From Bryobacterales bacterium (GTDB taxonomy: Bacteria; Acidobacteriota; Terriglobia; Bryobacterales; UBA6623), in the NCBI GenBank assembly GCA_040902925.1, contig JBBDWJ010000244.1, positions 20,795 through 84,794 of the forward strand: a stretch of DNA of 64,000 nt, read 5' to 3'. The notes beneath the pieces are model-generated. The model made no database searches and had not been told where the DNA came from. It worked only from the letters and a program-made list of their open reading frames with translations. Below are positions 1,333-54,151 of this stretch, in pieces (positions within the stretch are counted from its first letter, which is position 1; the number at the start of each line of letters is the position of its first letter). A program made the translations under genes and the position numbers.

Positions 1333-3015
1333 ATGAAACGCTTTCTTCCGATCATCCTTTTGCTGGCCGTCCCGGGCCTCTCCCAGGAACAAGTCGACCG
1401 CGAGGCGATCCATCGCATCAAGAAGGAAGCCTTCGAGAAATCGCAGATCGACGACCACCTGTTTCAGATGGTCGAGGTCCACGGGCCGCGGCTCACTAAC
1501 TCGCCAGGCTTTCGCGCCGCCGCCGGCTGGCTGGTGACAACGTTGAAGGGCTGGGAGCTCGAAAACGTTCATCAGGAAAAATGGGGCCCCTTTGGACAAG
1601 GCTGGTCCTACAGCCGCTTCTCGGCGCATCTGGTTCAACCCGGATATGAAACGCTGATCGGCGTACCGATGGGCTGGACGCCTTCCACCGAAGGAGTGGT
1701 TTCCGGAGAGCCGGTGACGGCGCCGCTCAAGCGAGAGAACAATCTGGTTCGCGACGAGGCGGCGGTCGACGACTACATCCGGAAATACAAGGGAAAGCTG
1801 AAGGGGGAGATCGTGCTCGTTGCCCCGCTCCAGAAGATTCGCGTGCAAGCCGAGCCGGCTCTGAAGCGCTTTTCCGACGCCGAGCTGACCGAGCGCGGCA
1901 AGGCCGAGCAACCCATCCCGCCGATTGACGTGGAATATCTCGACCCCGAGCTGGAGATTCCCGAAGAGCCCGAAGACCGCCGCAATTTTTTGGCCCAGGC
2001 GCCGGCATGGTTTCGCGAATGGTCGAGCAATGAGCGCCGCCGTATTCAGGGCAAGCTCAATACATTCCTGGCCGACGAAGGAGTACGTCTGGTGATTCAC
2101 CCGGCCGGAAAGGGCGACGGCGGCACCGTATTTCCGCCCCGCTCGGGCGACCGCCGCGTTGAGCACCCCGTGCCGCCGCCTTCGATCGCGATCACGCCCG
2201 AACAATACAACCGGATCTTCCGTCTGGCCGGGAAGGGGATCGCGGCGCGGGTCGAGGTCGAGGTGACCACGGCGTTCCATCGCGACACCCTCGATTCCGT
2301 GAACGTGATTGCCGAATTGCCGGGCGGATCGAAGAAAGACGAGCTGGTGATGATCGGCGCGCACCTCGATTCGGTCGACGCCGGTTTAGGCGCCACCGAC
2401 AACGCCGCCGGTTGCGCGGTGATGATCGAGGCAATGCGTATTCTCAAAACGCTGGATTTGAAGCTTGACCGCACGGTACGCATGGCGCTGTGGGGCGGAG
2501 AAGAGCAGGGGCTGCTGGGATCCAAGGCCTACATCAAGGAGCGCTTCGGCGATCCGGAAACGATGAAGCTGACGCCGGCGCATGACAAGCTTGCCGCTTA
2601 TTTCAATGTGGATAATGGCACGGGCAAAATTCGCGGCGTCTACCTGCAAGGCAACGACATGGTACGGCCGATCTTTGATGCATGGCTGGCGCCCTTCAAA
2701 GACCTTGACGCCACCACGCTCTCAATCCGCGACACCGGCGGCACCGACCATCTTTCTTTCGACGCGGTCGGCCTGCCGGGCTTCCAGTTCATCCAGGACC
2801 CAGTGGAATACGAAACGCGCACGCACCACTCCAACATGGACGTTTATGATCGCTTGCAACTACCGGATCTGATGCAGGCCGCGGCGATCGTGGCGTCGTT
2901 CGTGTATCACGCGGCGAACCGGGCCGAGAAGCTGCCCCGTGAGCCGTTACCGGACCCGCAGCCTCTCACAAAGCCGGAACCCAAGCCCGCGCAGGCAGCG
3001 GGTGGCGGCCAATAG
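1333..3015 (+). CDS. Secreted M28-family aminopeptidase
   Basis: The N-terminus [18 protein letters not shown] looks like a signal peptide. M28-type zinc-site motifs are present: [40 protein letters not shown] and HHSNMDVYD. The track start at 1258 is probably too far upstream. Confidence 0.85.
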
Positions 3016-3082
3016 CGGCGGAGCGCGTCGGGAACGAATCTGCAGCGGTCGAGTCTATCGGGAAAAGCCTGGCATCGGTCAG

Positions 3083-4105
3083 TCACGTCCCCACGTAACG
3101 CGAGTACAGGCTGCGCGCCACGCCCAAGTCTTCCGTGCCTTTGATGATGGCCCGCCCATCGCTGAATACGGTCATCTCGTAGGGTGGGCAAACGAACCGC
3201 AAGGCGTATTCGTTAGCCCGGACTTTTCCGAGCGGCTCGAGTGCCGTTCTGAGCTCCACTAAATCCAGGGTGCGTTGCGAATCGTGAACCTGCACGGCGT
3301 TGCGGCCGCAAAGCATCGCCGAGCGCCGGCGCGCGGTCTCCAGATGCTTGAACTCGCGGCGGACGCATGCCGCGCAATCAGCGTCGCGGCTGCCAACCCC
3401 GACAGAGCGGATCGTGTTATTCCACACGTCGATCGTGAGCAGCCGCCGCTCGACCCTATCGCTCTGGCCCGAAAGGATTTTTATCGCGTCGGCCACCTGG
3501 AACGCTGCAATCGACGCTGTGATCGAATTCAGCACACCCGCGGTATCACAGGTGGGCTGGGCGCCTTCGGGAGGCTCGGGAAACACGCACGCCAGGCAGG
3601 CGCTCGTTGCCGGAAACACCGGCATGGTGACGCCATAGCTGCCCACCGCAGCCCCGTAGACCCAGGGGATACCCAGCTTCACTGCCACATCATTCACGAG
3701 ATAGCGCGTCTCGAAGTTGTCGGTCCCGTCGAGTATCACGCCGCCGGGAGCCAGCAGTTCTTCCGCGTTTCCCGCGGTCAGATCGGCCACGCGCGCCTCG
3801 ACGCGCACGCCGGAATTGATCCGTCCCAGTTTCTTTGCAGCCGCCGCCGCCTTCGGCAGCGCCTGGGCGGCGTCTTCTTCGTCAAACAGCCACTGCCGTT
3901 GCAGATTACTTGTTTCGACGTAATCGCGGTCGATGATTGTGAGTTTGCCCACGCCGGCCCGAGCCAGCGCATCCGCCTGGAAGCTGCCTAGAGCGCCGCA
4001 GCCGACGATGACGGCGTGAGCGGCCAAAAGCCTTTCCTGGCCCTGCTCACCCAGGCCCTGGAACAGGATTTGCCGCGAGTATCGCTCTCGATCGTGTTCC
4101 GTCAT
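3083..4105 (-). CDS. ThiF/MoeB-family E1-like adenylyltransferase, long form with a ~90-aa C-terminal domain
   Basis: The N-terminus reads RYSRQILFQGLGEQGQERLLAAHAVIVGCGALGS...DRDYVETSNLQRQ. Cys pairs CLAC and CAAC are present. The C-terminal CGRNAVQV...FSDGRAIIKGT resembles the long Bacillus-type ThiF. Confidence 0.8.
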   Translation of the reverse strand: MTEHDRERYSRQILFQGLGEQGQERLLAAHAVIVGCGALGSFQADALARAGVGKLTIIDRDYVETSNLQRQWLFDEEDAAQALPKAAAAAKKLGRINSGVRVEARVADLTAGNAEELLAPGGVILDGTDNFETRYLVNDVAVKLGIPWVYGAAVGSYGVTMPVFPATSACLACVFPEPPEGAQPTCDTAGVLNSITASIAAFQVADAIKILSGQSDRVERRLLTIDVWNNTIRSVGVGSRDADCAACVRREFKHLETARRRSAMLCGRNAVQVHDSQRTLDLVELRTALEPLGKVRANEYALRFVCPPYEMTVFSDGRAIIKGTEDLGVARSLYSRYVGT

Positions 4106-43451: not shown

Positions 43452-46400
43452 CTAGAAAACCAGGCGCAGCGACAATTGCACGGTTCGCGCCAGCCCCTCG
43501 GTCCTGACGATCCCGAAATGAGGATCATCGATGTTGGTGAACGGAAAATCCCAGTTCCTGTTGTTGAACACGTTGAGGAAGTCGAAGCTGATGTCCGCAG
43601 ACAGGATTTCGCTGACGGCAAGCTGCCTAGTCAGCCTCAGGTCCCATTGCTGAAAACCCTGCATGCGAAATTGGTTGCGCGTCACTGTCCCCGGGCGAAG
43701 TTCATTGAAGTTGGTGGGATCGACATTTTGGAACACCGTCGGGTCGAAAGCGAACCTGCCGGTGATGGTTCGGCCGTCCTGAAGCGTGAACGTACGGACC
43801 TCACTGGGATCGAGCAACTGGAACTCGCCGACCAGGTCGGGCCGCCCGATGCGCTGAAAGCTGTAGGTGGGGTCCTTGGTTTGGCGGATATCGAGCGGCA
43901 GGCCCGAGCGCCAGCGCCACAAGCCGGTGACCTGCCAGTTGTCGAGCCAGGCGAGTTTGCCGTTCCAGCTTCGCGGCAACCGCCATTGATAAAACCACGA
44001 GGCCGTCAGAGTGTGCGTGCGGTCGAAGCTGGAGGGCGACCACGGCGCGGTGATGAGCTCGTCGCCAAAATCGCTGCTGCCATTGTCGAATGACTGCGAC
44101 CAGGTGTAGTTGAGATCAAACGCCAAGCCGCGGGCAAGGTAGCGGTTGGCGCGCAACTGCGCACCATGGTAGCGGCCGCTGCCTGAGCTCTCGAACGAGC
44201 GGATGTCGCGGTATTGCGAAAACCGCCGCATGTTGTCGATGAAGGCAAAACTGAGCACCGGATTTCGCTCGAACAGATTCAACTCGCGCTGGCGCTGCAG
44301 CGATAGGGTTCGCGTGCCGACGTAGACCGCGCTGGCGAATACGCGCCCGGCCAATAGCCGCTGCCAGCCGATGGTCCAATGGTGAGCCCTGGCGTTGTCG
44401 AAGTTGGGGTCGAACACCAGGATGGGGTAGGAGACCTGGTTGGAAATGATCTGTCCGGGCTCGAGGCGAGGCACGGTGGAAAGCGGCGCGCGAAAGCTGC
44501 CCTTCGTGCCGAGCCGGCTGAACTCGAAGCGGTTGTCAGTGCTCCAGGGCGGATACGTGGCGCGAAACAGCGCCGTAGCGCTCGATCCCGCGAAAGTTCC
44601 AAAATCGTAAAACACCCCGTAGGAAGCGCGGAATACCGAGCGGCCCGACTCGCCCAGGATCCAACGCGACAGCCGGTTATCCCAGCCAGGCGAAAAAGCC
44701 AGACCGACCCGCGGAGCCCAGTTGCGGCCGTCGGTGCCTACCGTCGAGCGCGGCAACGCGCCGCCCAAAGGGTCGGGGTCGCCCGGGAAGATCAAGTTCG
44801 GGAGGGTGTTGGGAAATTTCTGAGTCGTCACGCCCTCGCGGAAAGCGGCGATGCGGTCAAAGCGGTCGACCGCCGGGGGCTGCGACTCGTAACGAATACC
44901 CAAAGTCAGTTGCAGGCCGCGCGCCAGCCGGAAGTCGCCCTCGCCGTAGAAAGCAAACTCCTCCCAGCGCAAATCGAGGCTGCGCGGGCTCTGTAGGCGA
45001 TAACGTCCCGGAACGCCCATCAACAGGTTGGCCACGCTGTTGCGCGTTCCCTGAAAGGCGCCGGCAATGAAATCGAAGCTGCCGGCGAAGTTTTCCGTAT
45101 TCGTAAACGGCCAGATGCCTCGCCGAAACAGCGCGCCGCCGCGCAGCACGTGGCCCCGCGGGCGGTACTCGAAATCGTTGCGGATCTGGTAGGTCGTTTC
45201 GATCGACGACTCCGAAGAAACGAACGGCGCGATCCGAAATCGCTGCGCGCCCGTGTTCGTGAATAGCGTCACATCGGGGATCGTTCCTGGATCTACACCG
45301 CTGAAGCTGGCGTAGTCGAACCCAAACGTGCCGGCCGACGTATCGTGATAGTCCAAATGGCCCGTCCAGCGACCGATCGACAAACGCTGGCCGGAAAGCT
45401 GCACGGCGTGAGTGATGTTCGGCGTCGGCGTATGGATGACCGAAATTTGCGCGTTGTGGGAGAGCTGACGGCGCCGCGAGACCGCGCGCGGAGACGGTGT
45501 CAGGAAATCGCTAAGGGGATCGCGCACCACGTTGCGGAACCCTACGTGGCTGGCGTTGATGGCCCACTTTGACAAGCGATAATCGAGCCGCCCCAGGAAC
45601 ATTTCCCCGGTGCTTTCGAGATTGTTTTCGGCCTGGTGCAGCGCTTGCCCGAACACGTTCGGTTCCGGGACAAACGTGGCCAAGTACTTTTGCATCAGGG
45701 GATCAAAACGGCTTTCGGGAACCTTGCCGTCGGGGAACAGTTGTCCGCTTTGCGGATCCAAAGGAGCGGTGGCGGGGTCGCTCGAAAAATCGCCCAGCCG
45801 TTCCTGGAAACTCAGGACGGGATATTGTGCCGTATGCCGGCGCTCAGCGCGCCAGATCTCTCCATCGAGCAACAGGAACAAGCCGCGCGCGAGCGGACCG
45901 CCGGCCTGGCCGCCGCCCGCGAATCCCTCCAGCGAATCCGTCGAGCCGTCGTAGGTCTCCAGAAGATTTCCAAGATGCGGGCGCCAGAAGCCGCGCGCCT
46001 GGCCGTGCCAGTTGGGCCCGCCGCCGCGGGTCACCGGAGCGACCACGGCTCCGGCGTTGCGGCCGTCGCGGGCGGAATAGGTGTGGGTCACGACGCGGAA
46101 GGTTTCGATCGCTTCCGGCGCCGGCCCGTAGGTGCCGGCCTGGGAGCCGGTGAGCCGGTTCTGGGCGTTGTTCGATCCGCCATCAAGCTGGTAGTTGATC
46201 GCCGAGCGCCGCGACCCGTTGGCGGAAACAGCCGCGCCGCGCCCCGAAAACGGATTAACCTCAAGGGCCTCGACAGGGCTCATGCCCGGCACCAAGAGAA
46301 GCATCTTGTCGAGCGCCGTGCGGCCCTCGGTGCCAAGCAAAACCGGGACCGCTTCGATCTGCTCGCGCACCAGCCCGTATTCCAGTGCGATGCCTTCCAA

Positions 46401-46766
46401 GCCGGCCGTCGGCCGCGTCAACGGACGGGACAACTTCTCCAATTGCACGACGACATCGACAGGGCTGTCGGGCAGCAGCTCATAAGGACCGAGGCGTTGA
46501 ACTGCGTAGCTTTCGATCTCGAACGAAAGAGAGTAGCGGCCGGTGCGCAGTCCGCCGAAGGAGAATAGGCCGGCGATATCGGTGTGCGCGGTGATGAGTT
46601 TGGCGCTCGAAAGGTCGATCAGCCCGACCTCGACGTCCCGCAGCGGGAGGCCGCTCGAATCGTGCACGCGACCTTGGATGGTTCCGGGGGAAAAGATCTG
46701 CGCGGAAGCGCTAACCACCGCCATCGAGAAAGCGGCGAGCGCCAGCAAAGTCCACGCTCGAAGCAT
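43452..46766 (-). CDS. TonB-dependent-receptor-like outer-membrane beta-barrel with an N-terminal carboxypeptidase-regulatory-like domain
   Basis: The signal peptide is MLRAWTLLALAAFSMAVVSASAQ. The CarboxypepD_reg pattern is GTIQGRVHDSSGLPLRDVEVGL...TDIAGLFSFGGLRTGRYSL. A barrel of about 1000 aa ends ...LSLRLVF. Confidence 0.8.
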   Translation of the reverse strand: MLRAWTLLALAAFSMAVVSASAQIFSPGTIQGRVHDSSGLPLRDVEVGLIDLSSAKLITAHTDIAGLFSFGGLRTGRYSLSFEIESYAVQRLGPYELLPDSPVDVVVQLEKLSRPLTRPTAGLEGIALEYGLVREQIEAVPVLLGTEGRTALDKMLLLVPGMSPVEALEVNPFSGRGAAVSANGSRRSAINYQLDGGSNNAQNRLTGSQAGTYGPAPEAIETFRVVTHTYSARDGRNAGAVVAPVTRGGGPNWHGQARGFWRPHLGNLLETYDGSTDSLEGFAGGGQAGGPLARGLFLLLDGEIWRAERRHTAQYPVLSFQERLGDFSSDPATAPLDPQSGQLFPDGKVPESRFDPLMQKYLATFVPEPNVFGQALHQAENNLESTGEMFLGRLDYRLSKWAINASHVGFRNVVRDPLSDFLTPSPRAVSRRRQLSHNAQISVIHTPTPNITHAVQLSGQRLSIGRWTGHLDYHDTSAGTFGFDYASFSGVDPGTIPDVTLFTNTGAQRFRIAPFVSSESSIETTYQIRNDFEYRPRGHVLRGGALFRRGIWPFTNTENFAGSFDFIAGAFQGTRNSVANLLMGVPGRYRLQSPRSLDLRWEEFAFYGEGDFRLARGLQLTLGIRYESQPPAVDRFDRIAAFREGVTTQKFPNTLPNLIFPGDPDPLGGALPRSTVGTDGRNWAPRVGLAFSPGWDNRLSRWILGESGRSVFRASYGVFYDFGTFAGSSATALFRATYPPWSTDNRFEFSRLGTKGSFRAPLSTVPRLEPGQIISNQVSYPILVFDPNFDNARAHHWTIGWQRLLAGRVFASAVYVGTRTLSLQRQRELNLFERNPVLSFAFIDNMRRFSQYRDIRSFESSGSGRYHGAQLRANRYLARGLAFDLNYTWSQSFDNGSSDFGDELITAPWSPSSFDRTHTLTASWFYQWRLPRSWNGKLAWLDNWQVTGLWRWRSGLPLDIRQTKDPTYSFQRIGRPDLVGEFQLLDPSEVRTFTLQDGRTITGRFAFDPTVFQNVDPTNFNELRPGTVTRNQFRMQGFQQWDLRLTRQLAVSEILSADISFDFLNVFNNRNWDFPFTNIDDPHFGIVRTEGLARTVQLSLRLVF

Positions 46767-46774
46767 GGGCACGA

Positions 46775-48373
46775 CTATAAAGCCTGCGTGCGGTTCTTGA
46801 TACGGCGGATATGGGTACGGATACGATGGAGCAGCTCCCCGCAGGATTGCTCGGGGCTGGCGGCATCAACGGTCATCGACGAGGAGCCGAACAACGCGGT
46901 CAAATTGGAGTCGAGATTGAGCGTAGCCTGCAACAGCCCATGACTCTCTTCCCGCCAGTCGAGGGTTTCGTTCGATTCGGCGGCATCGCCGCGGCGGCTC
47001 CAGATCTTACGGGGTAGGGCTTCCGACAGACGATCGTAGATCGCCCCTTCGCGCTCGTCCAGGGCGCGCACGTGAAATCGGACGAGGTCGCGGAAGCGGC
47101 GCGTTGTTTGCGGGTCGGCTGACGCCAGTTGGTCCGCATCCACTCGCCCGAGAAAACGATGCAGTGCGTAGACGTGAGAGAGCAACTCCGACTGGCTGCT
47201 GTAGACCTCACTCACGTAGCGCCCCAATTCGCTTTCGAGCACGGAAGGCTGCGGCGATACGAACGAGCGCCTGGCCGCGTCGGAGAAATGGCTCAGCAGC
47301 GAGCGGCGGACGGCGCCACCGGCGGGGCCTCTATAGACGGTGTGGACAACGCGTGCCATCCGGCTCGTCTGCTGGCCGGCGGGCAGGTCTTCGCGAAGTC
47401 GAATCTGGAAGGCCGGCGGTTCGGACGACTGCCGGAGCACGGCGACCCGCACTCCTTCGCGAACCTCAGAGTCTTCCACCGTTCCTTCGATGAGCAGGCC
47501 GCGTGAAGTCCAGACCGGATGCAGGTCCTCCTGCCAAACCCGCGCCTGCGTCAGCAGCCAATACCCTTCGATAACGTTGGCAAACGCCAGCGGATCGGAA
47601 AGACGCGCGGGCTCGGCCTGAGCTAACTCTTCCACGACCGCTCGAAACGTGGCCAGAGGCAGGCGGGGAATCAACGCCGCTGGTACGCTGGCTGGCGCGG
47701 CGGAAACGCTCGGCGGCTCAATCCACGCCACCTGTTGCGAGCCGGCCTGAGGGCGCGGCGCAACAGCTAACTCGAATCTCACAAGCTCGGCTTCATTGGC
47801 GGGCGTCTCGATCTCGGCGGGATCGCCAACGAACGCCGGTTGGGGCGGGTTCAAGCCCGGGCCGGCGACCAGATCGACGTCAATTTCGCTTTCGCCGGCT
47901 GGTTCCTGTACGCCTTGCGCGGTCTCTTGCACCGCTTCTTGTAAGGCGGGTTCGGCTTCCAAAACCGCGGAGCCCGGTACCCCCGCCATTTGGGGTACTG
48001 CGGTCATTGGGGGCACGGCTGCCATTTGGGGCATGTCCGCGGCCGGCGGCTGGCTGGTGCTCAAATAGCCGCTCAACACCATGAGCGTGAGCGCAGCCGC
48101 CACGCTGTATACGACCGACCACCGTAACGGAAACTCGTTGTGGTTCTTCGGCGGATAAAGCGCCAGCTCCAGGTTGCGGTGCGACGCTATCTTGTGACCG
48201 TCCGGTTCGGCAGACACCGACGCCCGCAGAGCACATTCAGCCTCGAACAAGACAGTCTGCAGATGGAGCCACGAGTCCCGGCATGCGGGACACTCCTCCA
48301 TGTGGACTGCCAGTTCGGCGGCTAACGCACCGTCACAATGCAGCAGTAGTTCTTCTGTGGTGAGGTGTCTCAC
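46775..48373 (-). CDS. Anti-sigma factor (zf-HC2 N-terminus, one transmembrane segment, large uncharacterised periplasmic domain)
   Basis: The zinc-finger region is LLLHCDGALAAELAVHMEECPACRDSW. The transmembrane segment is WSVVYSVAAALTLMVLSGYL. The stop is 8 nt upstream of the receptor ATG. The GTG start at 48373 overlaps the sigma gene by 41 nt. Confidence 0.75.
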   Translation of the reverse strand: MRHLTTEELLLHCDGALAAELAVHMEECPACRDSWLHLQTVLFEAECALRASVSAEPDGHKIASHRNLELALYPPKNHNEFPLRWSVVYSVAAALTLMVLSGYLSTSQPPAADMPQMAAVPPMTAVPQMAGVPGSAVLEAEPALQEAVQETAQGVQEPAGESEIDVDLVAGPGLNPPQPAFVGDPAEIETPANEAELVRFELAVAPRPQAGSQQVAWIEPPSVSAAPASVPAALIPRLPLATFRAVVEELAQAEPARLSDPLAFANVIEGYWLLTQARVWQEDLHPVWTSRGLLIEGTVEDSEVREGVRVAVLRQSSEPPAFQIRLREDLPAGQQTSRMARVVHTVYRGPAGGAVRRSLLSHFSDAARRSFVSPQPSVLESELGRYVSEVYSSQSELLSHVYALHRFLGRVDADQLASADPQTTRRFRDLVRFHVRALDEREGAIYDRLSEALPRKIWSRRGDAAESNETLDWREESHGLLQATLNLDSNLTALFGSSSMTVDAASPEQSCGELLHRIRTHIRRIKNRTQAL

Positions 48374-48878
48374 GACCCTCGTTCTCCGATGCCCGCAGCT
48401 TTTTCACTGCTCGCGAAATGTAGCTGACTACAGTCGAAACCGATAATCCCAGCACTTCCCCGACCTCGCGAAACTTCAAACCCTCCGCCCGTAGCCGCAG
48501 ACACCCCATTTCCATGGGGCTAAGGCGATTCCACGGGAGTTGCGAGAGTTGCACTTTGGCATCAACATTCGATTTGGACAGGAATCTGTCCTCGATTTTC
48601 AGCCAGCTAGCGTTGTCGAGAAGTTCAGGCTTCTTCTTTCTTCCCTGATCGACGAGCAGATTGTGAGCAACACGGAAGATCCAGGCCCGTGGCTGCAGAA
48701 TCGATTCGTTCTGCGTACGGGCGCGGAAAAAACGGATGAAACTTTCCTGGGCTATGTCTTCCGCCTCCGATAGATCGTCGAGGTGATAGCGGAGGTAACG
48801 GACCAAACTGTCACGGCACTCTGCGAAGAGTTCTTCAGTCTCCCAGGCGGCAGTGTTTGCGGTGCCGAAAACAGTCAC
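48333..48878 (-). CDS. ECF-type RNA polymerase sigma-70 family factor
   Basis: Region 2 reads DIAQESFIRFFRARTQ...AWIFRVAHNLLVDQGRKKK. The region 4 helix-turn-helix reads LKFREVGEVLGLSVSTVVSYISRAVKKLR. The start codon is GTG. Confidence 0.88.
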   Translation of the reverse strand: MTVFGTANTAAWETEELFAECRDSLVRYLRYHLDDLSEAEDIAQESFIRFFRARTQNESILQPRAWIFRVAHNLLVDQGRKKKPELLDNASWLKIEDRFLSKSNVDAKVQLSQLPWNRLSPMEMGCLRLRAEGLKFREVGEVLGLSVSTVVSYISRAVKKLRASENEGRETPHHRRTTAAL

Positions 48879-49600
48879 GAGTGATGTCCCCGTGCCGTCC
48901 GTGCCGAACTGCCTGAAAACGTAAGACGATCCAGGCGGCTGTTCTTACGGCAGGATATGGCTAGTTAGTATTTTGCGCCCGCCTCCGCGGGCTTGTCAAA
49001 CTTTGTTTTTGGGCAACCGCGAGGCGGCTCAAAGGGGACCTTGCGGACGACGTCTAGTACGACGCCTTAGCTACTATATACAGTATCATCTAACCAAAAT
49101 AGCACAACGGAATGCGCTAATGAGATAAACTAGAGGTAGCGTCAAGCCCGTTGGGATCGTAGTCGGAGGACGTATCGAAAGTGTGGCAAACGTGCAACAA
49201 CTGTTACGCCCAAAATTTTTGTCTCCTTAGGACTACTAGAACTACGCCATTCCCGCCATATTGACGCTTCATCCCGGCGCCGACTCATCTTTGCTAATTC
49301 TCGGCGGCGGGTTCGATCTGCCCTGGCCGCCCAACGCGCGGCCCGGCTCGTAAGCCTGCCACCTTGCTGCACCCAAGACGCTCGCTTGACCGGCCCCAGA
49401 TCCATGCGCCATCCCGAGGTTCAGGAAGCCCGGGCAACGGCGCGGATCGCGGCCCGGTATCCTTCCGCACTCACTCCGCAACGGAGTTGGCGCCAAAACC
49501 GCCCCCGAGTTCGTCTATTGAGATGAGGACCGTCGGGATTGGACGCGGTCCAGGCCGCGTTCTCACGAATCTCGGCTCTTCTCTTAAAATGACCCACCTT

Positions 49601-49655
49601 GCCGGCGTGGGAGGAGGCGCCTCCTTACCTCTCCCACGCCGGCTCTTTGTTTTGC
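49601..49655 (+). terminator. Strong intrinsic terminator with no upstream plus-strand CDS
   Basis: GCCGGCGTGGGAG ... CTCCCACGCCGGC forms a perfect 13-bp outer stem. It encloses an inner GAGGC/GCCTC stem. TCTTTGTTTTG follows on the plus strand. Confidence 0.6.
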
Positions 49656-49846
49656 CTCACCGGCTTGCGACGCGGGTGTAAAACGGCCGGTCGGCTGGCC
49701 TACCCTCCATATCTCGCCTGACTCACCCTCCAGTGAGCTGCGAACCCCTTTGTGGCCCCGTAGTGGAGGCCAAAACGCTATATTGGTTCGTCCTGCCGGA
49801 GCCTTGCCTCTCGACGCGGCTCCGCCGATCACAAGGGAGCGTACTG

Positions 49847-51205
49847 ATGGTGGAAATGTCCGAAAAGGCTCGCGCGGAGTTTAACCGCTTCATGAATGGC
49901 TTGGTCCGGCGCAACGGGGGCCAGTCGGAGTTCCACCAGGCGGTTCGCGAAGCGGCCGAATATCTCGTTCCTTTCGTGCTCGACCGGCCGGGCTACCAGC
50001 GAGGCCAGATTCTTGAGCGCCTGACCGAACCGGACCGCATCGTCATTTTTCGCGTCTGTTGGACGGACGACGCCGGCAACATCCGCACGAATCGCGGTTG
50101 GCGGGTGCAGTTCAGCAATGCGATCGGGCCTTACAAAGGCGGCCTCCGCTTCCATCGCACGGTCGACCTCAGCGTGCTGAAGTTCCTTGGCTTCGAGCAA
50201 ACCTTGAAAAACAGCTTGACGACGCTGCCGATGGGCGGCGCCAAAGGCGGGTCGAACTTCAACCCCAAAGGCAAGTCCGACGCCGAAGTGATGCGCTTCT
50301 GCCAGTCGTTCATGACAGAGCTGTATAAATACATCGGCGACGACATCGACATTCCGGCGGGCGACATCGGCGTGGGCACGCGCGAAATCGGTTACTTGTT
50401 TGGCCAGTACAAGCGGTTGAGCAACCGTTTCGGCGGCTCGATCACCGGCAAAGGTCCGAGCTTCGGCGGCAGCCTCATTCGCTCCGAGGCGACCGGCTAT
50501 GGTTGCGTTTATTTTGCCCGCGAGATGATGAAGGGCGCCAGCCAGGGTTTGCCGGGCAGCACATGCCTGGTTTCGGGTTCAGGGAACGTGGCGCAGTTTG
50601 CCGTCGAGAAAGCCATTCAGCTCGGCGCCAAAGTCGTCACCATCTCTGACTCCGACGGCTTTATCTACGATCCAAGCGGCATCGACGAAGAAAAGCTGGC
50701 CTACGTGATGGAGTTGAAAAACGTCAAGCGCGGCCGGATCCGGGAATACGCCGAAAAATACGGCTGCGAGTTCCATGCGGACAAAACGCCTTGGGGAATC
50801 AAGGCGGATGTGGCTTTTCCGTGTGCGACGCAAAACGAGATCAACGGCGACGACGCCAAAGAGATGGTCAAAAACGGCGTGCGGGTGGTCGCCGAAGGGG
50901 CCAACATGCCGACCGATCCCGATGGCGTCGAGGTCTTTCTCAACGCCCGGATTTTGTTCGCTCCCGGCAAGGCGGCCAACGCGGGCGGCGTCGCTGTTTC
51001 CGGGTTTGAGCGCAGCCAGAACCAAACGTTTTTGCCTTGGAGCCGCGCCGAGGTCGATCAGAAGCTCCAGGAAGTGATGCATCGCATCCACCAGCAGTGC
51101 GTCAAATACGGCGACGAGGGCGGCTTCGTCAACTACGTGCGGGGAGCGAATCTGGCCGGGTTCGTGAAGGTCGCCGACTCGATCACGGCGCTCGGCGTGG
51201 TCTGA
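49847..51205 (+). CDS. gdhA: NADP-specific glutamate dehydrogenase
   Basis: The diagnostic motif is GGLRFHRTVDLSVLKFLGFEQTLKNSLTTLPMGGAKGGSNFNPKGKS. The Rossmann motif is VSGSGNVAQFA. The Shine-Dalgarno AAGGGAG precedes the ATG at 49847, and the track start at 49733 is too long. Confidence 0.95.
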   Translation: MVEMSEKARAEFNRFMNGLVRRNGGQSEFHQAVREAAEYLVPFVLDRPGYQRGQILERLTEPDRIVIFRVCWTDDAGNIRTNRGWRVQFSNAIGPYKGGLRFHRTVDLSVLKFLGFEQTLKNSLTTLPMGGAKGGSNFNPKGKSDAEVMRFCQSFMTELYKYIGDDIDIPAGDIGVGTREIGYLFGQYKRLSNRFGGSITGKGPSFGGSLIRSEATGYGCVYFAREMMKGASQGLPGSTCLVSGSGNVAQFAVEKAIQLGAKVVTISDSDGFIYDPSGIDEEKLAYVMELKNVKRGRIREYAEKYGCEFHADKTPWGIKADVAFPCATQNEINGDDAKEMVKNGVRVVAEGANMPTDPDGVEVFLNARILFAPGKAANAGGVAVSGFERSQNQTFLPWSRAEVDQKLQEVMHRIHQQCVKYGDEGGFVNYVRGANLAGFVKVADSITALGVV

Positions 51206-51330
51206 CGCATCCGCCACTGATCGAACGCGTCCAGCGTTTTCGTTCCATCGCCTTGCTTGCTCGCTGAGTTGCTCCGCGGCGCCGGGCCGGATAGGATGGA
51301 GACCTACTTGTTCTCGAGAGGAGATGTTTG

Positions 51331-52230
51331 ATGCGGCGCTCGTTGTTTTTCTTGTTCCTTCTCACCCTGGCTGCGTTTTCGCAATCGGATCTCCCCCAGC
51401 TTAGCTACAAGGCGGACCCCGATTGGCCTCAACTGCCGCCCAACACCAACCTGGTCGAGACGCCGGCCGTGACGGTAGACCCGGCCGAGAACGTTTACAT
51501 CTTCCACCGCGGCAATCCGCCGATCCTCGTTTACGACAAGAGCGGCAAGTTCCTGCGCGGTCTCGGCCACGGCTTGTTCGACAGCCCTCATGGCCTGCGC
51601 ATTGCGCCCGATGGGTCCCTATGGGCGATCGACAATGGATCGCACTTCGTAGTCAAGATGGACGCGATGACCGGCCGCGTGAAAATGGTTCTGGGCAGGC
51701 GGCGGACGGCCGGCGAGGCGGAGAATCTGTTCGACAAGCCGACGGATGTGGCCTTCGGCCCCAACGGTGACATCTACGTTTCCGACGGCTATGGCAACTC
51801 GCGCGTGGCGCAGTTTTCCAAAGACGGCAAGTTCATTCGCGCCTGGGGCAAGCGCGGCGTCAACCCCGGCGAATTCAACACGCCTCACGCCGTCGTGCTC
51901 GACAAGCAGAACAAGCTCTACGTGGCCGATCGCGAAAACTTCCGCATTCAGATCTTTGATCAGGAAGGGAAATTCCAGCAGATGTGGACCCATGTCGGCT
52001 CGCCGTGGGGGCTTTCCCTGACCCAGGACGACATGCTGTTCATGACCGACGGTTATAACAACCGCATCCTGAAACTCGATCTGGACGGTAAGATTGTCGG
52101 CTCGCTCGGAGAGTTCGGCAAGCTCCCCGGGCAACTGGACCTTCCGCACCACATGGCCGTCGGCCCTAGCGGCAACATTTACGTGGGTGAGATTGTGAAT
52201 TTGCGGGCGCAGCGTTTCGTGCCGCGGTAG
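51331..52230 (+). CDS. Secreted NHL-repeat six-bladed beta-propeller protein (peptidyl-alpha-hydroxyglycine-lyase-like)
   Basis: The signal peptide is MRRSLFFLFLLTLAAFSQ. NHL-like blades repeat (PHGLRIAPDGSLWAID, PTDVAFGPNGDIYVSDGYGN, PHAVVLDKQNKLYVADREN, PHHMAVGPSGNIYVGE). The Shine-Dalgarno GAGAGGAG lies upstream. Confidence 0.8.
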   Translation: MRRSLFFLFLLTLAAFSQSDLPQLSYKADPDWPQLPPNTNLVETPAVTVDPAENVYIFHRGNPPILVYDKSGKFLRGLGHGLFDSPHGLRIAPDGSLWAIDNGSHFVVKMDAMTGRVKMVLGRRRTAGEAENLFDKPTDVAFGPNGDIYVSDGYGNSRVAQFSKDGKFIRAWGKRGVNPGEFNTPHAVVLDKQNKLYVADRENFRIQIFDQEGKFQQMWTHVGSPWGLSLTQDDMLFMTDGYNNRILKLDLDGKIVGSLGEFGKLPGQLDLPHHMAVGPSGNIYVGEIVNLRAQRFVPR

Positions 52231-52303
52231 GCGTCGCTGGCTGCGGCGCCAAGAATATCCTGTTTCCGCTGGCGCGCTTGGTACGGGCAAGCGTGGATAC
52301 AAC

Positions 52304-54151
52304 ATGAAAAGCACCGCTCCGTCTGGGATTTGGGCGCGCGTCGGCAGCGCCTTCGTCATCGCCGGCTTATGTGTCGCTCCGCTGATAAAAGCGGAAAACA
52401 CCAGGCCCATGATCATGGGTAAGCGTGGCCTCGTGGTTTCGGGCCACCACCAAGCGAGCGCCGCCGGCCTCGAGATGATGCGGCAAGGCGGCAACGCCAT
52501 CGACGCCGGAGTGGCAACGGTGTTTGCCCAGACCGTGGTCGAATTTGACCGCGTCGGCGTGGGCGGCGAAGTGCCGGTTCTGATCTACTTGGCCGATCAG
52601 AAACGCGTCGTGGCGATCAACGGTCACGGCTTTGCGCCGCGCGCCGCCACCCTGGAATGGTTCCGCGAGCGAAACATCGAGCACATCGCCGGCGACGGCT
52701 TTCTTCCCGCCACCGTTCCGGCTGTCGTCGAGTCGCTGATCCTGGCGCTTGACCGCTTCGGCACGAAGTCTTTGGCCGAAGTGCTGGCTCCTGCCATCGA
52801 TCTGGCGGCCAACGGCTTTCCGGTCTATCCGCATTTCCAGGAACACGTCGAGCAATACTCGGCGCGCTTCCGCAGCGAGTGGCCCAGCTCGGCGAAGATT
52901 TTTCTCCCTGACGGAAAAGTTCCCAAAGTCGGCGACGTGTTCGTGCAGCAGGATCTCGCTCGAACCTTTAAGCGGCTCGCTGCGGCGGAAGCCGAAGCGC
53001 TCTCGAACGGATCGGACCGTAGCGCCGGCCTGAAGGCGGCGCGCGATTTGTTCTATGACGGCGAGATGACACGCGAGATCGTGCGATTTCAGCGCGAGTT
53101 CAAGACCCGTGATGACACCGGCATCGTATCAAACGGGCTGTTCACCGAAGAGGACTTCGCCGCGTTCCATGCCCGCGTGGAAGACGCCGCCAAGACGACT
53201 TATCGTGGCGTAGATGTCTACAAGTTGGGGTTTTGGTCGCAGGGGCCGGTGCTGCTTCAGGCGCTCAACATCCTCGAAGGCTACGACGTGCGCTCAATGG
53301 GCCATAACTCGCCGGCTTATATCCATCTACTCGGCGAGGCGATGAAGCTGGCGTTTGCGGACCGCGAATGGTATTACGCCGATCCGGATTTCGTGGGCGT
53401 ACCGGAGGAAGGGCTGCTTTCGAAAGAGTATGCCGCCGAGCGCCGTAAGCTGATCAACCTTGAGGCGCCGTCTCTGGAGCTTCGCCCGGGCGACCCGTAT
53501 CCGTTTCAACCTCGCGCCATGGCGCACGCGGCGATTCCTCAATCCATCGAGCTGCGGCCCGACCCGCCAGGCACGACGGGCACGCGTGTCGCCGACGGCG
53601 ACGGGAACGTTTTCTCGGCAACGCCAAGCGGCGGCTGGTTCTACTCTTCGCCCATCATCGAAGGGCTTGGCTTTGTGCTCGGCACCCGCGGGCAAAGTTT
53701 CTGGCTCGATGCGGATCGAGCGAATCGGATCGAGCCGCACAAGCGCCCGCGCACGACATTGACGCCGAGCCTGGCGATGAAAGACGGCAAGCCATTTCTG
53801 GCATGGGGCACCCCTGGAGGCGATGTGCAAAACCAGGTCAACCTGCAAATCTTTCTCAACGTCGTCGAGTTCGGCATGGACGTTCAACAGGCCGTCGAGG
53901 CGCCCCTGTTCCAGATCCTCGATTTCCCGGTTTCGTTTTATCCGCGCGACGCTTCTCCCGGAGTGATGCGCGTGGAAACGCGGATACCGGAGGCGGTTGC
54001 TGAAAAACTGCGCCAGATGGGCCATCAGATTCGGCCCGCCGGCGCGTGGTCCATCGGTGACGGCACGGCCCTGATGGTGGACGCGGACCGTGGCGTGTTA
54101 TTCGGCGCAGCCGGGCCTCGACGCGACAAATCGTACGCGCTGGCCTGGTAA
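52304..54151 (+). CDS. Gamma-glutamyltransferase-family protein (second paralog, with an N-terminal signal/anchor)
   Basis: The N-terminal region reads GLVVSGHHQASAAGLEMMRQGGNAIDAGVATVFAQTVV. The putative nucleophile region is PPGTTGTRVADGDGNVFSATPSGG, followed by WGTPGGDVQ. Confidence 0.85.
   Translation: MKSTAPSGIWARVGSAFVIAGLCVAPLIKAENTRPMIMGKRGLVVSGHHQASAAGLEMMRQGGNAIDAGVATVFAQTVVEFDRVGVGGEVPVLIYLADQKRVVAINGHGFAPRAATLEWFRERNIEHIAGDGFLPATVPAVVESLILALDRFGTKSLAEVLAPAIDLAANGFPVYPHFQEHVEQYSARFRSEWPSSAKIFLPDGKVPKVGDVFVQQDLARTFKRLAAAEAEALSNGSDRSAGLKAARDLFYDGEMTREIVRFQREFKTRDDTGIVSNGLFTEEDFAAFHARVEDAAKTTYRGVDVYKLGFWSQGPVLLQALNILEGYDVRSMGHNSPAYIHLLGEAMKLAFADREWYYADPDFVGVPEEGLLSKEYAAERRKLINLEAPSLELRPGDPYPFQPRAMAHAAIPQSIELRPDPPGTTGTRVADGDGNVFSATPSGGWFYSSPIIEGLGFVLGTRGQSFWLDADRANRIEPHKRPRTTLTPSLAMKDGKPFLAWGTPGGDVQNQVNLQIFLNVVEFGMDVQQAVEAPLFQILDFPVSFYPRDASPGVMRVETRIPEAVAEKLRQMGHQIRPAGAWSIGDGTALMVDADRGVLFGAAGPRRDKSYALAW

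Follow-up and report, generated by a model that had tools for sequence, protein, structure and literature searches.

In a 64,000-nucleotide stretch of Bryobacterales (Acidobacteriota) DNA (contig JBBDWJ010000244.1, positions 20,795 to 84,794 of the forward strand; hereafter the window, with position 1 as its first letter) the gene of an extracytoplasmic function (ECF) sigma factor and gdhA, which encodes an NADP-specific glutamate dehydrogenase, stand back to back. The 968 bp between the GTG of the former (48878, minus strand) and the ATG of the latter (49847, plus strand) thus separate two divergent units. By comparing this gap with its counterparts in related lineages we found that its 3' 150-200 bp probably constitute an independent plus-strand gene that encodes a small structured RNA and is coupled to the ECF sigma module. 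The comparison establishes the conservation, structure, strand, terminator and sigma linkage of this predicted RNA, which we regard as a candidate for a new small RNA (sRNA) family tied to an ECF sigma operon and without a match in Rfam. The rest of the gap is made up of sigma promoters, an AT-richer spacer of constant length, a conserved motif (Block B), a variable spacer and the gdhA promoter region.

Relatives were gathered through sigma-factor and GdhA protein searches and contig retrieval. Six lineages have the sigma/gdhA layout of the window (L093, L092, L098, L095, L154 and L138; hereafter window-type), with L138 being partial (cut by the contig end) and L092 lacking the sigma side; L095 is the same contig as L083, and the gap of L096 is identical to that of L095. 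The divergent gaps of L093, L098, L095 and L154 span 786-949 bp. A distant clade (L086-L091, hereafter the L087 clade) carries a sigma factor with 66% identity, has upstream of it an acyltransferase gene in the place of gdhA, while L155 encodes a GdhA with 75% identity that has no sigma neighbour. A scan of metagenomes with the pattern GTTCGTC..GAGGACNGTCGGG gave 55 matches, 53 of which were chance occurrences in G+C-rich coding DNA (the real ones were only L127 and L138), and a GdhA scan of a genome collection returned, among the matches listed, only distant phyla (<=66% identity), which were used solely as a negative set. Alignments of the relatives divide the gap into conserved blocks and variable spacers, and the block that concerns us here has the following anatomy.

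49509-49654, plus strand: conserved RNA block, from the alignment of relatives (RNA 49509/49524-49654; the wider block E starts at 49462).
49524-49583, plus strand: stem-loop 1 (RNAalifold), with basal GAGGA / UUCUC and GUCGGGAUU / AAUCUCGGC pairings.
49584-49600, plus strand: single-stranded, C-rich linker with an invariant ACCCACCU at 49592-49599, the presumed seed.
49601-49654, plus strand: Rho-independent terminator with a perfect 13-bp outer stem, an inner GGAGG/CCUCC region and a U-rich tail.

The consensus fold of the six lineages (RNAalifold, 39 pairs) consists of stem-loop 1, the linker and the terminator hairpin. In a MAFFT alignment that was not fitted to any structure, 96.6% of the cells pair (sliding the partners by 1-3 columns lowers this to 48.7-57.5%), six pairs have changes on both sides, and none of 500 column shuffles matched the observed pairing or covariation score. 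Once the second clade is added, in an alignment fitted to the model, the pairs with double changes rise to ten. Covariation is conspicuous at the apex of stem-loop 1, a hairpin of 7-9 bp (49541-49562; helix 2) in which all nine pairs vary, three of them with compensatory changes, and 98% of the cells pair; the swaps include G-C to A-U and C-G to U-A, and the loops read CCAG, UUCG, UGCG or AAAU. The helices hold 43 G-U cells, and pairing drops from 96.6% when read from the plus strand to 79.4% from the minus strand, which points to the plus strand as the functional one; the reverse strand of the block also folds less well. Minimum free energy (MFE) folding gave z-scores of -5.7 for the window and -6.4 for L087, with stem-loop 1, linker and terminator present in both. 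The linker is unpaired in the MFE and consensus folds, and its ACCCACCU does not vary in any sequence of either clade.

The most stable of the elements is the terminator (-33.4 kcal/mol, z = -5.45; none of 200 shuffles folds as well). Its stem (49601-49613 / 49631-49643) is followed by the tail TCTTTGTTTTG, which reaches 49654 (the tail is also given as UCUUUGUUUUG). Among the 15 pairs of this helix (helix 3), three show compensatory and six one-sided changes; U-rich tails were found in five of the six window-type lineages and in L087, and the terminator is kept in both clades. A simple consensus terminator scan missed it, and that scan's own three matches were at chance level. At the apex of the hairpin (49618-49627) GGAGG pairs with CCUCCUUA, which is identical to the anti-Shine-Dalgarno end of 16S rRNA; the loop of the L087 type is likewise CU-rich (UCUCCUCCC).

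These results bear on a first-pass annotation of the gap, made by eye from the window alone. Its textbook plus-strand intrinsic terminator is confirmed by the folding z-score and the compensatory changes among relatives. Its suggestion of a plus-strand sRNA of a few hundred nucleotides agrees with ours as to the sRNA (covariation, strand asymmetry and conservation in two clades), but not as to size, for the RNA would measure about 135-145 nt and cover only 49509/49524-49654. Conservation itself proved divided, the RNA block being kept with covariation in relatives and the AT-richer core of the gap being near-unalignable. The same annotation had failed to match the region to known RNA classes, and neither Rfam nor ARAGORN fared otherwise. 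The covariance scan that it had proposed, once run, yielded no family at gathering or relaxed thresholds: Rfam 15 had no match at the gathering score anywhere in the window, there was none at E <= 1 in five homologous loci, and a relaxed scan of 48700-50000 gave five chance-level matches (E 1.6-9; microRNA, long non-coding RNA and Mycobacterium sRNA models), three of them on or overlapping the terminator hairpin. ARAGORN found no transfer RNA (tRNA) or transfer-messenger RNA (tmRNA) gene, and the window holds no second copy of the RNA block.

The neighbour with which the predicted RNA is inherited appears to be the sigma gene. We built a covariance model (R1) from six window-type sequences, which recovers all the window-type copies at E < 1e-33 and finds full-length matches in L086-L090 (E ~1e-7), on the opposite strand to the sigma gene, some 230 nt upstream. 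What lies ahead of the RNA in these loci is the 3' end of a convergent acyltransferase gene, and it has no downstream gene to lead; hence, it is no 5' leader there. In 81 other gdhA loci (L155 among them) R1 had no significant match upstream of gdhA, its only matches being those in L014 (E 0.28) and L011 (E 0.012), which lie at or beyond the gdhA 3' end, and L155 having none. Taken together, the context in L086-L090 and the missing matches upstream of other gdhA genes argue that the RNA travels with the sigma operon and is not a gdhA attenuator. The comparison of loci thus shows the putative RNA gene kept back to back with a sigma/anti-sigma/receptor operon in two Bryobacterales-like clades, whatever its other neighbour.

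In L091 (4507-5782, minus strand of the locus) an IS630/Tc1-like insertion about 1.1 kb long interrupts the RNA in the apical part of stem-loop 1; its ends read TTGAGTCCCGC...GCGGGATTCAA, and it holds helix-turn-helix (HTH) and DDE_3 open reading frames (ORFs). This copy of the RNA is mutated at the base of the 5' stem, too, and, given both lesions, looks inactivated.

Upstream of the RNA, and again upstream of the sigma gene, short conserved boxes form a putative control region.

49462-49516, plus strand: upstream boxes of the RNA gene (presumed promoter/operator), conserved and parted by spacers that are variable in sequence and fixed in length.
49462-49470, plus strand: Box1, (C/G)TTCCGCAC, consensus GTTCMKCAC, recognized by conservation.
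49488-49499, plus strand: Box2, TGGCGCCAAAAC, consensus (TGGCAY)CAAAAC, about 17-20 nt after Box1.
49509-49516, plus strand: Box3, GTTCGTCT, 8-9 nt after Box2 (9 in the window).
48924-48943, minus strand: sigma-proximal box pair GTAAGAAC-N9-GATCGTCT(TAC), about 50 nt upstream of the sigma start codon.
49774-49793, plus strand: gdhA upstream element CCAAAAC-GCTATATTG-GTTCGTCC, found by regular-expression scan and alignment, with the layout Box2-N9-Box3.

The same three boxes recur in the L087 clade, and the distance from Box1 to Box3 is 47 nt in both clades; from Box3 to stem-loop 1 there are 7 nt in the window type and 2 nt in the L087 type. The sigma-proximal pair (in relatives GGTTCGTCTTAC) is kept in six of six window-type lineages and in the L087/L091 clade, and on the sigma strand its consensus in both clades is GTAAGAAM-N8/9-GWTCGTCTTAC, also written TGCCGTAAGAAM-N8/9-GWTCGTCTTAC. 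Hence, in each clade the RNA and the sigma gene are both preceded by an A-rich box, N8/9 and GWTCGTCT in this arrangement, with the RNA-side and sigma-side pairs lying 165-555 bp apart. By our rough estimate, the chance that two conserved regions of ~150 nt have an 8-mer in common is about 0.005, and it is this improbability that speaks for a common control. The shared boxes suggest that the RNA and the sigma gene are co-regulated; they could be the site of a shared regulator or represent the promoter type of this sigma factor.

In front of gdhA the resemblance is looser, as in the relatives only the central GCTATATTG (49777-49785) of the element is invariant; it is -10-like (TATATT), and the gdhA ribosome-binding site follows downstream. 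On the sigma side, the 5' region (48919-48948, minus strand) also holds an inverted repeat (CGTAAGA-N16-TCTTACG, then UUUU) that overlaps the GWTCGTCTTAC box, is kept in the window-type clade and not in the L087 clade, and has a folding z-score of only -1.6.

We envisage that the RNA would be driven by its own promoter within the box region (49462-49516), released at the terminator as a transcript of about 135-145 nt, or of some 165 nt in the L087 type, and co-regulated with the sigma gene through the A-rich box and GWTCGTCT, placed 8-9 nt apart. Its C/U-rich single-stranded segment may pair in trans with the G-rich ribosome-binding regions of target mRNAs, in which case the RNA would be the non-coding arm of the sigma regulon, by analogy with what RybB, MicA and MicL are for sigma-E. 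A fuller version of this scheme, which we put forward only tentatively, makes the RNA the dedicated non-coding output of a surface-signalling module (sigma factor, anti-sigma factor and receptor), switched on together with the sigma gene via the shared boxes and silencing mRNAs through the ACCCACCU seed. The silenced mRNAs might possibly be those of envelope genes or of nitrogen-assimilation genes, the latter suggested by the window's gdhA promoter having the same boxes.

Several observations weigh against this interpretation. Canonical ECF promoters have an AAC-core -35 and a CGTC/TC-type -10 element separated by 16-17 nt. Here, in AAAAC-N8/9-GTTCGTCT, only 11-12 nt part the AAC of the A-rich box from CGTC, a spacing that makes the ECF-promoter reading of the boxes doubtful. 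Instead of being a -10 element, Box3 could mark the 5' end of the RNA, given that in the L087 clade just 2 nt part it from the base of stem-loop 1. The covariation counts are small, as they come from about eight distinct and related sequences in two clades, and the pairing register of the conserved 3' strand of stem-loop 1 (CUCGGCUCUUC) differs slightly between the two clades. Finally, a scan with the linker and the 5' box, run on the translation-initiation regions of the window's 139 ORFs of >=120 aa, singled out no target, either among the neighbours or in the 64 kb as a whole (the best matches reached only about 2 standard deviations), and whole-sequence duplex folding was uninformative as to targets.

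Before the alternatives are weighed, the remainder of the gap needs to be described.

48879-49013, minus strand: conserved sigma upstream region (A), from the alignment.
48970-48999, minus strand: sigma-70-like promoter of the sigma gene, TTGACA-N18-CAAAAT (promoter scan, 10/12).
49002-49178, no strand: AT-richer segment (B), G+C 0.485-0.525, near-unalignable in sequence and kept in length.
49179-49247, no strand: Block B, a conserved DNA motif, near-invariant in seven lineages.
49248-49460, no strand: variable G+C-rich spacer (D), about 50 to 230 nt among relatives and unalignable.

Both hexamers of the sigma-70-like promoter are kept in the relatives, and the spacer between them is variable. 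The lower G+C content of the gap core, noted in the first-pass annotation, is real: 200-nt windows of 48900-49299 have values of 0.485-0.525, compared with ~0.60-0.70 on either side. The AT-richer segment holds two TATA-centred near-palindromes (~49071-49090 and ~49102-49119) at positions that are fixed among relatives, and in six lineages the distance from the sigma -35 box to the core of Block B (GGACTACTAGAAC) is 240-243 nt (48993-49242 in the window). Over these 240 nt there is no RNA folding signal (z ~0 on both strands, six lineages), and no ORF of the segment is conserved between relatives. Block B comprises an imperfect palindrome, TGTKGC-N6-GCAACA (49182-49199), followed after 31-33 nt by GGACTACTAGAAC (49230-49242), and is present once in the window. 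By eye, neither Block B nor the AT-rich segment was seen in the L087 clade, where the RNA and Box1-3 persist. Sigma-54, sigma-70 and canonical ECF readings of Block B and of Boxes 1-3 were tried by manual inspection and set aside, as spacings or hexamers misfit.

Three hairpins that had been listed as structured elements of the gap do fold, but no better than chance, and they are not conserved. The one at 48977-48992 (z = -2.3), which relatives do not keep in sequence, falls within the variable spacer of the promoter in the otherwise conserved sigma-upstream block, while those at 49303-49330 (z = -1.9) and 49424-49466 (z = -1.0) both sit inside the variable spacer 49248-49460. The second of them, with its TTCGATC loop followed by CCA, might recall a tRNA, a tmRNA or an attachment site derived from a tRNA; such a reading is countered by ARAGORN (0 tRNA/tmRNA genes), by the missing Rfam match, by the low z-score and by the lack of conservation of the region.

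Among the alternatives to a short independent RNA gene, we would still allow some small chance to the conserved block forming just the 3' domain of a non-coding RNA of 300-560 nt, which would start at Block B, near 49247, or around 49080, where the TATA-like palindromes lie. In its favour are the conservation of Block B and of the TATA-like motifs and their upstream position in the same orientation, and such a length would fit the few hundred nucleotides of the first-pass annotation. Nevertheless, the intervening 49248-49460 varies from ~50 to 230 nt and is unalignable, Block B shows on manual inspection no sigma-70 promoter in either orientation, and the 240-nt segment is devoid of a folding signal; it is above all the unconstrained spacer, together with the failure to see Block B and the AT-rich segment in the second clade (which keeps both Box1-3 and the RNA), that makes a longer RNA unlikely. 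It is improbable, too, that conservation acts at the DNA level only, with the region serving as a protein-binding or architectural part of the sigma promoter, or being a mobile or foreign remnant, and with its hairpins incidental. Boxes 1-3 do resemble DNA sites (being conserved with variable spacers of fixed length), and the composition of the AT-richer core is atypical; yet compensatory and G-U changes keep the helices, the 43 G-U cells make the structure strand-specific, the canonical terminator keeps its U-tail in both clades, and no second copy occurs in the window. It is the strand-specificity of the compensatory changes that contradicts a purely DNA-level role. Decayed foreign DNA, one of the origins that had been proposed for the gap, is excluded for the RNA block, and the AT-richer core diverges in sequence yet is oddly constant in length.

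We consider it at least as improbable that the block is a cis-acting leader of gdhA, i.e. a riboswitch or attenuator in which transcription stops at 49601-49654 or reads through depending on a signal sensed by stem-loop 1. In the window, as in five relatives, the block has the orientation of gdhA and ends ~190 nt short of it, and the window's gdhA upstream region repeats the Box2-N9-Box3 pattern. Against these points stand the RNA of L086-L090, with neither a downstream gene nor gdhA in the locus, and the 81 other gdhA loci (L155 included), which are without a significant R1 match upstream of gdhA. In addition, the spacer from terminator to gdhA is variable both in length and in sequence and has an invariant -10-like GCTATATTG of its own, and the MFE, centroid and consensus folds comprise only stem-loop 1, linker and terminator (no antiterminator was seen, in folds examined without an explicit search of suboptimal pairings). 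The long attenuator or riboswitch-type leader that had earlier been offered for gdhA is therefore not supported. Least probable, in our judgement, is a small protein or a dual-function RNA, encoded from a start at 49523-49525 (MRTVGI...) or by a 105-aa ORF (49364-49681). All lineages have ATG, TTG or GTG at 49523-49525, and the window's frame stays open; what contradicts the idea is that indels of 1 and 2 nt just past GTCGGGAT shift the frame between lineages. Moreover, peptide similarity extends over several frames and both strands at once, manual inspection found no suitably spaced ribosome-binding site, and the ORF would run through the terminator hairpin.

The gap as a whole tells the same about coding potential. 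Its ORFs measure 30-105 aa, and a six-frame comparison among relatives found no conserved reading frame; translated similarity between relatives occurs in several frames and on both strands simultaneously, with a frame that differs by lineage, and the indels of the conserved block are not multiples of three. The earlier statement that the gap holds no credible ORF is upheld on all these grounds. In L093 a 214-aa gene has been called within the homologous gap (2976-3620, minus strand of the locus); it has neither a Pfam match nor a frame shared with other lineages and is probably a spurious call in G+C-rich DNA.

Returning to the independent sigma-linked sRNA, the functionally closest known systems would, by analogy, be the sigma-E-dependent sRNAs, among which RybB, MicA and MicL belong to enterobacteria. 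FoxI and FoxJ are described as sigma-E-dependent sRNAs in Fusobacterium (PMC11005410). With both sets the predicted RNA has in common its small size, an intrinsic terminator, a putative place in the circuit of an envelope-governing ECF-type sigma factor and a proposed pairing with mRNAs via a short conserved single-stranded segment. It differs from them in that there is no sequence or Rfam relationship, in its phylum (Acidobacteriota), and in that its putative sigma dependence is suggested only by a shared box with non-canonical spacing. It is also physically coupled to, and divergent from, its sigma gene, which to our knowledge the genes of RybB, MicA and MicL are not.

Other systems share parts of the layout. 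DonS-type sRNAs are divergently transcribed within loci of the SusC/TonB-dependent-receptor type, which are also under an ECF sigma/anti-sigma pair; DonS, however, is antisense to the 5' end of a receptor gene, while the RNA described here (49509-49654) overlaps no gene, lies upstream of sigma and is separated by an operon of >5 kb from the receptor start (46772), and shows no sequence similarity to it. RsaE/RoxS of Firmicutes likewise combine stem-loops and unpaired C-rich motifs (here ACCCACCU; CCCAC twice in the L087 type) with a terminator hairpin, and such motifs could pair with G-rich Shine-Dalgarno regions (here by prediction only); the RNAs are not homologous, there is no Rfam match, and the regulator and phylum are other ones. 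In OxyS/oxyR and GcvB/gcvA the sRNA gene is divergent from that of its LysR-type activator, which binds between the two genes. The back-to-back position with a regulator gene and the shared upstream control region are similar here, but the gene next door encodes a sigma factor, and 165-555 bp separate one box pair from the other.

Acidobacteriota rank with the most abundant bacteria of soils, and in the literature that we searched no study of an acidobacterial sRNA turned up. The candidate, with its clear structure, defined terminator and fixed sigma-operon partner, could thus offer an entry to post-transcriptional control in this phylum. If the coupling holds, the repressing RNA arm of ECF regulons would extend beyond Proteobacteria and Fusobacteria, and this would be the first sigma-coupled sRNA family in Acidobacteriota, with an sRNA gene inherited as part of a sigma module. 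For annotation, it follows that the terminator should not be taken for a gdhA attenuator, nor the 214-aa call in L093 for a gene.

The genes on the two sides of the gap are as follows.

48333-48878, minus strand: ECF sigma gene (Pfam Sigma70_r2 / r4_2), the first of a three-gene operon.
46775-48373, minus strand: anti-sigma gene (zinc-binding anti-sigma (ZAS) motif, 532 aa), second in the sigma operon.
43452-46772, minus strand: gene of a TonB-dependent-receptor-like outer-membrane protein of 1106 aa (Pfam CarboxypepD_reg + OMP_b-brl_4).
49847-51205, plus strand: gdhA, NADP-specific glutamate dehydrogenase (Pfam ELFV_dehydrog), a neighbour only, outside the RNA unit.

The order sigma, anti-sigma and receptor is also found in the relatives. 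The listed ORFs of sigma and anti-sigma share 41 nt (48333-48373). The N-terminus of the 532-aa anti-sigma protein has HMEECPAC, i.e. the HxxxCxxC zinc-binding anti-sigma motif, and a Pfam search of the protein matched no family; in the 1106-aa outer-membrane protein the Plug match is weak and below the family cut-off (Pfam).

On the other side of the gap, the window's GdhA is 100% identical to the NCBI entry 'MAG: NADP-specific glutamate dehydrogenase [Bryobacterales bacterium]' (MAG, metagenome-assembled genome), and the Logan contig L081 is 100% identical to the window over 2 kb. Genes for an NHL-repeat protein and then a gamma-glutamyltranspeptidase follow 3' of gdhA on the plus strand. 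This order of gdhA, NHL-repeat beta-propeller and gamma-glutamyltranspeptidase (49847-54151 in the window) recurs in L092, and its first two members in L093, while in L096 and L098 the transpeptidase gene comes directly after gdhA; the three genes may form a small cluster related to glutamate and glutathione.

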